Positions 28,519 through 31,868 of a DNA stretch of 64,000 nucleotides are shown here, piece after piece (position 1 is the first letter of the stretch; every line of letters starts with the position of its first letter). The notes under the pieces are model-generated. The model searched no databases and was not told where the DNA came from. It saw nothing but the letters and a program-made list of their open reading frames with translations. The DNA is from Escherichia phage I29, in sequence record ON286975, one strand, 5' to 3'. The position numbers and the translations under genes are program-made.

Positions 28519-28595
28519 TGGTCTCCACGGAGTGATTCGAACACTCGACCTCCTGATCCCAAATCAGGCGCTCTACCAAGCTGAGCTACGCGGAG
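28519..28595 (-). tRNA. tRNA-Pro (anticodon UGG)
   Basis: Hand-folded: acceptor CTCCGCG/CGTGGAG (C1-G72), anticodon stem CCTGA/TCAGG, loop TTTGGGA, T-arm GAGTG-TTCGAAT-CACTC, encoded CCA. Confidence 0.8.
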
Positions 28596-28606
28596 TATTT
28601 ATTATT

Positions 28607-28681
28607 TGGTGGCCCTGGGTGGAATTGAACCACCGTCTGGCGATTATGAGTCGCTTGCTTGAACCTTCCAGCTACAGGGCC
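28607..28681 (-). tRNA. tRNA-Met or Ile2 (anticodon CAU)
   Basis: Hand-folded: acceptor GGCCCTG/CAGGGCC, anticodon loop CTCATAA, T-arm GGTGG-TTCAATT-CCACC, encoded CCA. Confidence 0.75.
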
Positions 28682-28682
28682 A

Positions 28683-28758
28683 TGGTGCTGATGGCAGGAC
28701 TTGAACCTGCAACCTATTGATTACAAATCAATTGCACTACCAATTGTGCTACATCAGC
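28683..28758 (-). tRNA. tRNA-Thr (anticodon UGU)
   Basis: Hand-folded: acceptor GCTGATG/CATCAGC, D-stem GCAC/GTGC, anticodon stem ATTGA/TCAAT, loop TTTGTAA, T-arm GCAGG-TTCAAGT-CCTGC, CCA. Confidence 0.8.
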
Positions 28759-28763
28759 AAAAA

Positions 28764-28862
28764 GGTGCTAGGTGATGGAATCGAACCACCTATGTATTCA
28801 ACGACTACCTCGTCTATTTTCAGGATTAAAAATCCTCGCCCTTGCCAAAGGGCTTACCTAGC
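28764..28862 (-). ncRNA. atypical tRNA-like element (possible pseudo-tRNA or small stable RNA); anticodon not assignable
   Basis: 7/7 complementary acceptor ends GCTAGGT/ACCTAGC, D-arm GCCC-TTTGGCAA-GGGC and T-arm GGTGG-TTCGATT-CCATC, but the 46-nt middle has no canonical anticodon arm and contains a tight AGGATT-TTT-AATCCT hairpin; 3' end is ACC-T rather than CCA. Confidence 0.35.
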
Positions 28863-28960
28863 TCAGTATGTTGACCATGTTGCTAGTCGGCGATGACGAC
28901 TGTAACATTTGATAATCCGGTTCTGCTTCCGGCTTTCGCTTAATTACAAGGTCAACAATA

Positions 28961-29051
28961 TGGCTGAGGGTAATGGAATCGAACCATCATCAAGTCATCC
29001 TCAACGGGACGGTTTTCAAGACCGCTTGAGCACCATTGCTCCCTACCCTCA
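28961..29051 (-). tRNA. tRNA-Ser (anticodon UGA), type II with long variable arm
   Basis: Hand-folded: acceptor TGAGGGT/ACCCTCA, anticodon stem GCGGT/ACCGT, loop CTTGAAA, long variable arm, T-arm GATGG-TTCGATT-CCATT, discriminator G, CCA. Confidence 0.7.
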
Positions 29052-29165
29052 TTTATAAACAATACTGATAATGACACTGATTTTCGAGCAGTTAGTGACT
29101 AGTATAAACGACGATAAATATCAATGCCATTATCTGTATGATTTATGCATTTAAAACTATAAATT

Positions 29166-29252
29166 TGGTGGGGAGTGGTGGAGTCGAACCACCCGAGTCG
29201 CAATGACAATAGATTTACAGTCTACACCGCTACCCCTACGGGATAACTCCCC
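29166..29252 (-). tRNA. tRNA-Tyr (anticodon GUA), type II
   Basis: Acceptor GGGGAGT/ACTCCCC, anticodon loop CTGTAAA and variable arm TGTCATTGCGACTCG closely resemble bacterial tRNA-Tyr; T-arm GGTGG-TTCGACT-CCACC, CCA. Confidence 0.8.
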
Positions 29253-29256
29253 AATT

Positions 29257-29331
29257 TGGCACCCCGTACTGGACTCGAACCAGTGTCAACGGCTTAGAAG
29301 GCCGCTGCTTTATCCACTAAGCTAACAGGGC
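29257..29331 (-). tRNA. tRNA-Arg (anticodon UCU)
   Basis: D-arm TTAGCTTAGTGGATAAAGC, anticodon stem-loop GCGGC-CTTCTAA-GCCGT, T-arm ACTGG-TTCGAGT-CCAGT, CCA; resembles bacterial tRNA-Arg(UCU). Confidence 0.75.
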
Positions 29332-29427: not shown

Positions 29428-29766
29428 TTAGCTATTGCTAACAGGTTGTATTTCTGTGGTAAATGGCATAAAAGGTGCTGGTTTTTCAGCCTCTTCTACT
29501 ACCACCTCTTCCTCTTCACCAAACATCTCATCATATTCTTCCTGCATTCGGTCTGCCTTATCAAGAACATACTCTGCAATGCTTTGACGAATATTTTGTT
29601 TGGTTTTCGGGTCCAACATCAGCTCTCTTAAAACTTTGTGAGCTTCTGGAACCATCGCTATAAAAGATTCCTTCATATCAAGGATGTTCTTCTCTAGCTG
29701 AATGGCGTTGGACTCCTCTTTCAGAGGTCTGCCTCTACGGCGACGCTTTTTAGTTGTATCCGCCAT
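29428..29766 (-). CDS. small DNA-binding-like protein with AT-hook-type motif and acidic C-terminus
   Basis: ORF track 29428..29886; ATG at 29766 has a GGAGGAAAC RBS and sits downstream of the promoter at 29795..29823. N-terminus MADTTKKRRRRGRPLKEE contains an RGRP core; C-terminus is Glu-rich. Confidence 0.45.
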   Translation of the reverse strand: MADTTKKRRRRGRPLKEESNAIQLEKNILDMKESFIAMVPEAHKVLRELMLDPKTKQNIRQSIAEYVLDKADRMQEEYDEMFGEEEEVVVEEAEKPAPFMPFTTEIQPVSNS

Positions 29767-29794
29767 GTTTCCTCCATTATCACGTGATAGGTGG

Positions 29795-29823
29795 ATTTTA
29801 TCATAGCAAATACTGATTGTCAA
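29795..29823 (-). promoter_or_regulatory. sigma70-like promoter (TTGACA-17-TAAAAT)
   Basis: Minus-strand reading cTTGACAatcagtatttgctatgaTAAAATcc; same TTGACAAT...TAAAAT pattern as the promoter at 16115..16143. Confidence 0.55.
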
Positions 29824-30110
29824 GTTCGCCGCAGGGTGGTATTCCCTGCGACTTGTCCAGCGTCCTGGACCAGAAAGACCCAACAAGTGGGTTACCAGAG
29901 CCCATTACCGCACTTTGGCTCGACCTTATTACAGGTTGGCTGGGGTCACATCGTCATGTGCTGGCTGCCCCTACCATTTTAAGTGTGGTGCACTATCAAG
30001 CCCTCTAAGGGGAACTCAGCCTTCTCCGAACCCTGTTTCAAAGCATCCGGAGATAAAGCCATCAAATTCATCTTTAAATTGGATATTCATCATGATACAC
30101 GAAAACAACC

Positions 30111-30353
30111 TCATTGTAAAGCACAAATAAATAAAACATACTTAATTTGTTTGTTATCAGGCTCAGGGTAGAAGTAGAAGATCTTGCTATCACCGATCTG
30201 AACACCACCATCCCAACAGCATAGCCCATAACCCGTATTCATACAAGCTAAGTCGTTGGCAAAATCTATTGCATCATCCAGTGCACGAAATTCACCTTCA
30301 TCTTCTAAATAATCCTCATTCATGGAACGAAAAACGAGCTTAACCTTAAACAT
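30111..30353 (-). CDS. hypothetical protein
   Basis: 80-aa acidic ORF. Confidence 0.35.
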   Translation of the reverse strand: MFKVKLVFRSMNEDYLEDEGEFRALDDAIDFANDLACMNTGYGLCCWDGGVQIGDSKIFYFYPEPDNKQIKYVLFICALQ

Positions 30354-31207: not shown

Positions 31208-31711
31208 AGCTGCCTCCTCTTCAAGTTATAGAAAAACTAACTGTATCGCTTTGTAACGAGCTTTTCTATCAAACTGGTGCGATTGCATTACCTGGTATAG
31301 TTTATATAGCTGTGGAGCGATTTAGGGGCCTTCTTGTCAGTTTCCACACATAAACTTCATCCAAGCTCGCGCGGGAGACTCTCAACCGACTCCTTACGGC
31401 GCTGGCAAGCTTTCGTCGGTGGTCCACATCAGTGCTCGGCCTTTGGCCTGCGCTATCGCTTCGCTCCCACACATGTTAACAGACCTGTATGTATGAACTT
31501 CTGTTATTGTGTGCACCAAAGAGGCCCGGCATCTCGCCCCTCGTAGGCGAGTGCCAATGAAGGGCCGACACTGCCCATAGTAAGTAATAAATTTAAAACA
31601 TGGTACTTAGGATCTAGTATATTCTACATAAGTTAAGTATATGTACTTAGTACCATAAGTACTAGATCTTTTATTTTTTTATTATTTAGTTATTTTAGTT
31701 ATATTCTTTAT

Positions 31712-31820
31712 GTGTCCGTATCACGGACAGCTAGTGTCCGTATTACGGGCAGATGTGTCCGCGTGACGGACAGTAGTGTCCGTATCACGGACAGTTAATA
31801 GTATCCGTTCCATGGCGAAC
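31712..31820. repeat. array of four tandem ~21-bp direct repeats (iteron/operator-like), each with internal inverted repeat, plus one degenerate copy
   Basis: GTGTCCGTATCACGGACAG at 31712-31730 and 31776-31794 (identical), GTGTCCGTATTACGGGCAG at 31734-31752, GTGTCCGCGTGACGGACAG at 31755-31773, degenerate copy about 31800-31820; spacing 22/21/21 bp; each unit contains GTCCG...CGGAC. Confidence 0.8.
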
Positions 31821-31868
31821 ATAAAACATACGAATCCTTATAGTACAGATATTTAAGTTTTTACTGGT

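Follow-up and report, generated by a model that had tools for sequence, protein, structure and literature searches.

The window, that is, the whole 64,000-nt stretch of Escherichia phage I29 DNA that was analysed (sequence record ON286975), is assigned by its sequence to an rV5-type Vequintavirus. Positions 29700-30200 have 99.8% identity to Escherichia phage rV5 (V5, AC No. DQ832317) in BLASTN, and more than 100 further Vequintavirus genomes match the same interval. All genes in this region are carried on the minus strand in the rV5 record, where the interval under study (29824-30110) extends from ORF75 to the sigma70 promoter P74 of ORF74, and the tRNA cluster starts about 500 nt further downstream (rV5 record, ARAGORN, and Rfam). 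The ORF at 30111..30353 and the sigma70-like site at 29823..29795, both on the minus strand, are located as a preliminary description of this DNA had them. The GC-rich island that it reported was also recovered: 29700-29999 has a GC content of 0.50-0.52, and the flanking DNA about 0.38-0.42.

The interval had been described as about 290 bp of non-coding DNA. This is correct for about 29824-30015, but the upstream end was drawn too far, as 30016-30114 on the minus strand is an ORF of 32 codons. The records of phages bov10K2, HMD-6, and ime list the ORF as a CDS; it is probably coding and hence outside the RNA discussed below. In the distant relative L031 (loci are designated here by L numbers), it is reduced to a 7-codon ORF (MKDEFDGF*), and 21 nt of the region, AAAGATGAATTTGATGGCTTT, are still conserved there at the DNA level. 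Features of the region are collected in Table 1.

Table 1. Features of the minus strand at and around the non-coding region, in coordinates of the window.
Feature	Position	Strand	Remarks
Candidate sigma70-like promoter TTTACA-17-TATCAT	30092..30120	-	10/12 consensus matches, consensus match only; could drive the RNA
32-aa ORF MRLFSCIMMNIQFKDEFDGFISGCFETGFGEG	30016..30114	-	ATG overlaps ORF75 stop (ATGA)
Whole non-coding structured region, ~192 nt	29824..30015	-	from 32-aa ORF stop to P74 -35 box
5' domain (29982..30012), hairpin CCCC-UUAG-AGGG	30001..30012	-	
5' domain, hairpin AGUG-CACCA-CACU	29982..29994	-	
5' strands of two crossing helices, alpha and beta	29961..29971	-	read by eye
Crossing helix alpha, GGGG with CCCC	29968..29971 with 29942..29945	-	GGAAC/GUUCC in L031
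Crossing helix beta, CCAG with CUGG	29961..29964 with 29895..29898	-	GUGAGGG/CCCUUAC in L031
Peripheral hairpin CACAU-GACG-AUGUG	29947..29960	-	5' of core, GACG loop
Conserved core module, three-way junction and flanks	29891..29951	-	61 nt
Closing helix P-a, 5' strand AGCCA	29937..29941	-	next base is junction base A, 29936
Hairpin H1, CCU-GUAAUA-AGG	29924..29935	-	
Junction strand J1/2, UCGA	29920..29923	-	C and A invariant
Mini-hairpin H2, GCC-AAA-G(U)GC	29910..29919	-	3 bp, triloop, bulged pyrimidine
Junction strand J2/a, GGUAA	29905..29909	-	invariant
Closing helix P-a, 3' strand U-[G]-GGCU	29899..29904	-	near-invariant bulged G at 29903
Hairpin ACCCA-CUUGU-UGGGU	29878..29892	-	UCCCA/UGGGA in L288
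Hairpin GUCCAG-GACG-CUGGAC	29855..29870	-	compensatory GCUCAG/CUGAGC in L288
Hairpin CGCAGGG-AAUACCA-CCCUGCG	29830..29850	-	abuts P74 -35 box; stem invariant, loop variable among relatives

Both hairpins listed in the preliminary description exist. As read on the plus strand, GCAGGG-TGGTATT-CCCTGC lies at 29831-29849 and GTCCAG-CGTC-CTGGAC at 29855-29870, in each case 2 nt away from where they had been placed (29829-29847 and 29853-29868). The former can be extended by one pair to CGCAGGG/CCCTGCG, and the minimum-free-energy fold contains both. The fold energy is only modestly unusual (z = -1.95 to -1.98), and 7-9 of 200 shuffled sequences folded equally well. With z of about -2, the hairpins alone are not compelling, and the case beyond chance is made by the comparison across genomes. 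In that comparison the two hairpins proved to be real and conserved, but the element that bears the signal, the three-way junction of Table 1, had gone unnoticed, and the hairpins are lineage-specific 3' appendages.

The motif, as defined in covariance model R1, comprises a P-a of 3 bp or more in which a G is bulged after the first 3' base, an H1 of CCU-N6-AGG, a 3-bp H2 with a triloop, a J1/2 of (mostly pyrimidine)-C-N-A, and GGUAA as J2/a. Every one of these features can be read directly in the sequence of the core module, which is the sole copy in the window (70.2 bits, E = 7e-20). Both the R1 alignment and the structure test are based on 42 distinct core sequences. Their consensus is CCU-GURNNA-AGG for H1 and G-N-C / triloop / G-(bulged Y)-N'-C for H2; J1/2 has a pyrimidine in most copies, followed by C, N, and A, and the G bulged from the 3' side of P-a after the first pair is near-invariant. 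About 17 nucleotides are invariant and are concentrated in the junction strands and the adjoining pairs, while the distal loops vary freely.

When 29700-30200 was used as a BLASTN query, 804 phage records were found, 118 of them rV5-like and the rest mainly T4-like. The 43 nt at 29901-29943 match about 690 T4-like records with 90-97% identity and unrelated flanks; in T4, this stretch is located between denV and vs.8. The core was also recovered by pattern scans of IMG/VR in unrelated backbones of 38-371 kb. The carriers are T4-like contigs, a distant rV5 relative (L031, L288), 70-kb phages, contigs of 38-97 kb, jumbo phages of 360-371 kb, and 46-48-kb contigs with Klebsiella siphophages as the closest database relatives. 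Enterobacterial phages of 46-70 kb are among them. Two motif loci are represented by Pseudomonas phages KIL1-5 and pf16 (BLAST), and a metagenome scan added more variants, one of them from a TARA ocean sample. No match to 29824-30110 was found by BLASTN in 5,426 E. coli genomes, so at BLASTN sensitivity the region is not a copy of host sequence. A pattern scan of bacterial genomes gave at least 120 matches; among the matches listed, none passed the filter for CCU in the register of the H1 5' stem, and three were partial passes, each lacking a hairpin. Two loose patterns returned mostly noise, and a scan for the form with short H2 returned known copies only. A few T4-like genomes have two tandem copies of the motif. 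In L035 (5087-5258) and L037 (9013-9185), these lie upstream of vs.8 and are diverged, the second copy having a shortened H2 (GUC-CGC-GAC or GCC-CGC-GGC) and a 3-nt J1/2.

The structure is supported by covariation. In the 42 sequences, 89.8% of the cells assigned to pairs are paired, compared with 74.5% in shuffles and 28-45% when the 3' partners were slid. Both sides have changed in 66 cells versus 26.5 in shuffles, and the covariation score is 0.393 versus 0.100, with none of 500 shuffles as high. At each of the three inner pairs of P-a, pairing is kept in all 42 sequences and 4-5 pair types occur (AU/UA/CG/UG; CG/GC/UA/AU/GU; CG/GC/AU/GU). H2 is also 100% paired; its middle pair is CG, UA, or GC, and also AU in metagenomic copies, with a mismatch at this place in one metagenomic copy, L423. 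In H1, which is 99% paired, a single mismatch occurs, and phage KIL1 has the only double compensatory change (CCA/UGG). Not just the pairing but also the base sequence of the stem is conserved, and a scan in which the stem bases were left free found the known copies and a single chance match. On the proposed strand, there are 15 G-U pairs and five A-C pairs; because of this excess and the orientations of tRNAs, promoters, and terminators, the RNA is placed on the minus strand of the window. The preliminary description had suggested a small structured RNA of the kind present in phage tRNA regions and had named structural conservation in related genomes as the test for it. Such conservation was found, as the module is kept with compensatory changes in the distinct sequences from many phage lineages, and in most of these lineages tRNA genes are close to it on the same strand.

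These data also bear on whether one of the two strands of the interval could encode a protein, or whether the interval could act at the DNA level, for instance as what is left of a mobile element; we consider either alternative barely plausible. Identical 43-mers in unrelated phages could result from DNA transfer, and ORFs of 63-71 aa are mechanically predicted on the plus strand of the flagged region. The preliminary description regarded the latter as spurious, and rightly so: they are present, yet 1- and 4-nt indels among close relatives break them. In T4T (L002 1444-1553; AC No. HM137666, 64783-64892), the annotation adds 37 codons to vs.8 across the motif, but in most T4-like records the spacer carries no annotation, and vs.8 starts from the conserved MRTFLTG/MKFLTP codon. 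Both this N-terminal extension in T4 and the 'hypothetical protein' genes predicted across the motif are probably annotation errors. Moreover, the changes are compensatory in the helices and not in third codon positions, and the motif has neither flanking repeats nor mobile genes.

Around the core, the rV5-type RNA is conserved over the whole of 29824-30015 in rV5-type phages, with substitutions and indels located in loops and linkers. The peripheral pairings and their compensatory changes were read by eye in six sequences. The 5' domain is conserved in rV5-type phages and in L031, where the CACAU/AUGUG hairpin is replaced by CUACG-GACG-CGUAG. The CUGG strand of helix beta is retained in relatives though the spacers vary. 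The hairpin at 29892-29878 is the only terminator-like site, and a weak one. Its U-run reads CUUUCU in the window only, CUUGCU in rV5 and other rV5-type relatives, and CUUGCG in L288. The hairpin scores as a terminator because of the T at 29875, which makes the U-run; this base is G in rV5 and other relatives and is the sole difference from DQ832317 in the RNA region as aligned (195 nt). None of the other hairpins has a U-tract, and a hairpin with a U-tract kept in relatives, as in an intrinsic terminator, was not found in this region.

It is highly unlikely that the hairpins are only local punctuation of the transcript, terminating or stabilising the ORF75 mRNA and insulating P74, with no separate function of the RNA. 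The two hairpins noticed first are indeed at the 3' end, next to the -35 box of P74, and one hairpin is terminator-like in the window; however, none has a conserved U-tract, and the U-run is interrupted in relatives. Punctuation also cannot account for a 61-nt junction which recurs base for base in unrelated phages with compensatory changes.

The genomic contexts of the motif are diverse. In the rV5-type phages and in L026, L028, L029, L031, L032, L036, L042, L283, L423, L432, and L436, a same-strand tRNA gene is a few hundred nt to about 1 kb away from the motif. In KIL1 (L039) and L433 the motif is inside tRNA clusters, in L084, L443, and L463 it is 47-60 nt downstream of a tRNA, and in L135 it is just upstream of a tRNA, behind a promoter. 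Some copies are units in their own right. L031 has a TTGACA-17-TATACT promoter directly upstream of the motif and the ORF74 promoter directly downstream. In L032, L290, and L291, an intrinsic terminator follows the motif, with a gene after the terminator in L291 and L032; the order in L291 is promoter, motif, terminator, and gene. In pf16, the motif is placed between a CDS stop and an annotated terminator, and a phage promoter is next. In T4-likes, a spacer of some 140 nt is conserved and has the motif at its centre, always immediately 5' of vs.8; the spacer ends 15-35 nt before the vs.8 start, and the upstream gene varies. RNAalifold gave no clean global fold for full T4-like leaders. No Vs.8 homologue was found near the motif outside T4-likes by TBLASTN, and no informative function was obtained from Pfam or PHROG for Vs.8, ORF74, ORF75, and ORF76.

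The 3' part of the T4-type spacer (L004 4290-4345, L007, L025) carries a hairpin with the loop AUACAUGGAUGA, followed by CAAGGAAU and then by the Shine-Dalgarno sequence of vs.8. The loop is close to what we take to be the CsrA SELEX consensus, RUACARGGAUGU, and this suggests that vs.8 may be under CsrA control.

A ligand aptamer would fit part of these contexts, either controlling the gene that follows as a riboswitch (for vs.8 in T4-likes and for ORF74 in rV5) or serving as a small-molecule sponge. Conservation of the junction is high, as in aptamers for small molecules, the motif is always in the 5' leader of vs.8 in T4-likes, and it precedes an intrinsic terminator in the three loci named above. 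The T4 vs region presumably also holds the anti-defence sponge Acb2 (Vs.4), which we count for this explanation. Nevertheless, such a role appears unlikely. In rV5 and L031, a promoter of its own separates ORF74 from the motif, a terminator and a new promoter are interposed in pf16, and many copies are within tRNA operons, with no gene to regulate. The downstream genes are unrelated, Vs.8 being limited to T4-likes, and no alternative pairing with a ribosome-binding site or a terminator was found. The 5' UTR position typical of riboswitches is seen in T4-likes only, and a consistent one with a coupled expression platform was not found.

The location between operon genes or tRNAs, where processing is needed, could instead point to a new small self-cleaving or otherwise catalytic RNA, which would cut polycistronic transcripts (tRNA operons, denV-vs.8 in T4, ORF75-ORF74 in rV5) and so separate or stabilise their products. 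The architecture of three short helices with an invariant set of nucleotides and free distal loops is hammerhead-like. On the other hand, the stand-alone units of promoter, motif, and terminator (L291, L031) would not have to be processed, the helices, at 3 bp, are very short, the sequence alone reveals no cleavage-site signature, and there were zero matches to Rfam ribozymes with E up to 10. We do not expect that the motif is a ribozyme of this kind.

Several further elements were observed near the motif or in related loci. Contigs of 46-70 kb (L036, 1737-2320; also L026, L028, L029, L042, and L286) have a long non-coding operon with the order promoter, modules, and tRNAs, in which the motif is one of the modules. 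At the start of this operon there is a tmRNA-like tag region, AUAAAU-GCAAACGAAGAAAUGUAUCUGGCAGUAGCCUAA, which encodes ANEEMYLAVA*, and at its end a tRNA-like T-arm and ACCA; the modules are separated by inverted repeats cacaacaggtaagagca / tgctcttatcgttgtg. ARAGORN recognised no tmRNA in it, and the tmRNA models of Rfam match weakly. The tag region is present in about 790 phage records, mostly unannotated, including Felixounavirus, Klebsiella siphophages, and P1/P7, and also in Salmonella phages of about 155-158 kb (Marshall, Maynard). In the window, a second GC-rich stretch (0.525 GC) at 31290-31590 on the minus strand looks structured, and only the 56-aa ORF78 is annotated there in rV5. Just upstream of it, at 31700-31830 on the same strand, there are four palindromic GTCCGTGATACGGAC-like boxes with the look of an operator array; Rfam gave no match there. 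At 28764-28862 on the minus strand, ARAGORN predicted a 99-nt 'tRNA-???' with a four-base anticodon (atcc), and the Rfam tRNA model scored 35.5 bits. The GenBank record of rV5 has no annotation at this place, between tRNA-Thr and tRNA-Ser, and L288 gives the same ARAGORN call. Group I introns at the Rfam gathering threshold were found a few kb from the motif, three in L039 (5067-7951; Pseudomonas phage KIL1) and one in L032 (12784-13079; a 96-kb contig).

The reading that we favour, with a probability of roughly 0.55, is that 29824-30015 on the minus strand would be a structured non-coding RNA of about 190 nt, stable and trans-acting, whose 61-nt junction core belongs to a widespread phage family. 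Its expression, stability, and action in trans, as well as the identity of its partner, are what we infer from the sequence, the structure with its covariation, the distribution, and the genomic contexts given above. A stable trans-acting RNA is favoured because every context would yield a discrete folded RNA, by tRNA processing, by promoter and terminator bounds, or as a leftover 3' fragment. A cis-acting leader fits only the T4-likes, as the other copies sit in tRNA operons or in 3' UTRs before terminators, or have a promoter between themselves and the next gene.

The functional heart of this RNA would be the three-way junction. In rV5, it would most likely arise as the 3' part of the transcript of ORF75 and the small ORF, or from the weak promoter at 30120-30092, and it would probably persist as a compact stable species. 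In other phages, the module may be released from tRNA operons or made from its own promoter and terminator. The RNA would then act in trans as a folded species, with the invariant junction offering a surface or pocket to a partner that is conserved in hosts from the gamma-proteobacteria and beyond. Because of the linkage of the motif to tRNAs, our leading guess for the partner is a component of the translation/tRNA machinery, or defences aimed at such machinery. Some points speak against the trans-acting RNA: rV5 has no convincing terminator, the single candidate hinging on one window-specific base; the T4-like position 5' of vs.8 suits a cis-acting leader too; and an invariant junction with variable distal loops is as typical of ribozymes and aptamers as of RNAs that bind proteins.

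A more far-reaching proposal, which is tentative and rather doubtful, is that the junction represents a new class of functional RNA fold and serves as a small ribozyme, or else as an aptamer or decoy for a host immune signal or for a defence factor that targets tRNA or translation. If this were true, T4, rV5, KIL, pf16, and many other virulent phages would share an RNA-based device for counter-defence or processing, expressed with their tRNAs. Since the 1970s, small stable RNAs have been known from the tRNA regions of phages, with roles that remain unexplained. Here, a compact motif backed by covariation is present in T4 and in unrelated phages of Escherichia, Klebsiella, Salmonella, Yersinia, and Pseudomonas, as well as in environmental phages. 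A near-invariant junction in such different genomes implies a strongly constrained interaction, and since T4 has the motif, genetics and biochemistry can be applied to it at once.

For comparison with known families, the window, the T4-like loci, and the other loci were scanned with the 4227 models of Rfam 15 at gathering and permissive thresholds. At the gathering threshold, only tRNAs were found in the window; with E up to 10, just chance matches to snoRNA and sRNA models were obtained in 29700-30200, outside the core, and there was nothing on the motif in the T4-like and other loci. ARAGORN predicted seven tRNAs at 28519-29331, and neither a tRNA nor a tmRNA at 29824-30110, where no T-arm or acceptor stem is visible. 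The window has no counterpart of the tmRNA-like tag module that other phages carry beside the motif. The motif is nowhere described in the literature searched, a comparison that excludes a large catalogue of candidate phage RNAs (PMC10690425), and it defines an RNA family absent from Rfam 15 and from that literature, common to virulent phages of gamma-proteobacteria and environmental phages.

Likenesses noted by eye to the RNase P S-domain, the SRP Alu domain, the T-loop, PK1/PK4 of tmRNA, and mini-ykkC (GACG loops) were rejected, being unsupported in the Rfam scans. The 530 loop of 16S rRNA (helix 18), as we presume it to be built, shares with the motif the closing helix, C-N-A, the GC...GC mini-hairpin, and GGUAA, and differs in that the motif has H1 as an extra inserted hairpin. 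Mimicry of this loop was rejected, as R1 without filters misses helix 18 in E. coli rrsB, and the local likeness is no more than a lead. The motif resembles the hammerhead and other small self-cleaving ribozymes of phage operons in that short helices meet in a three-way junction with an invariant core, the distal loops vary, and the location is between genes or tRNAs, but it has neither CUGANGA nor GAAA core strands and no match to an Rfam ribozyme. Three-way-junction riboswitch aptamers, e.g., of the purine class, are likewise small with a conserved junction, and the motif is a 5' leader in T4-likes. However, its helices are far shorter (3 bp), many copies are outside 5' UTRs, no expression platform is recognisable with it, and Rfam gave no match to these aptamers either.

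Pseudo-ToxI of Pectobacterium phage PhiTE is a decoy RNA and a precedent for a large virulent phage with a trans-acting structured RNA directed at a host system. ToxI-type RNAs are tandem 36-nt repeats processed by their own toxin; the motif, in contrast, occurs once, or twice in a few T4-likes, and has no sequence in common with them. Another likeness is to the species 1/2 RNAs of T4 (RNA C and RNA D, genes rnaC and rnaD), which are also small structured non-tRNA RNAs in or near a phage tRNA cluster. They are co-transcribed with tRNAs and have no known role (PMC3014915). The T4 copy of the motif is about 6 kb away from them, between denV and vs.8, and RNA C has a tRNA-like T-arm and 3' end, whereas the motif RNA has neither. 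Kinship with RNA C and RNA D was rejected, since R1 had no match in L159, which carries rnaC, rnaD, and tRNAs of T4. In kind, the closest known counterparts of the motif RNA are the small non-tRNA RNAs of phage tRNA regions, with roles unknown (PMC3014915, PMC9697503).
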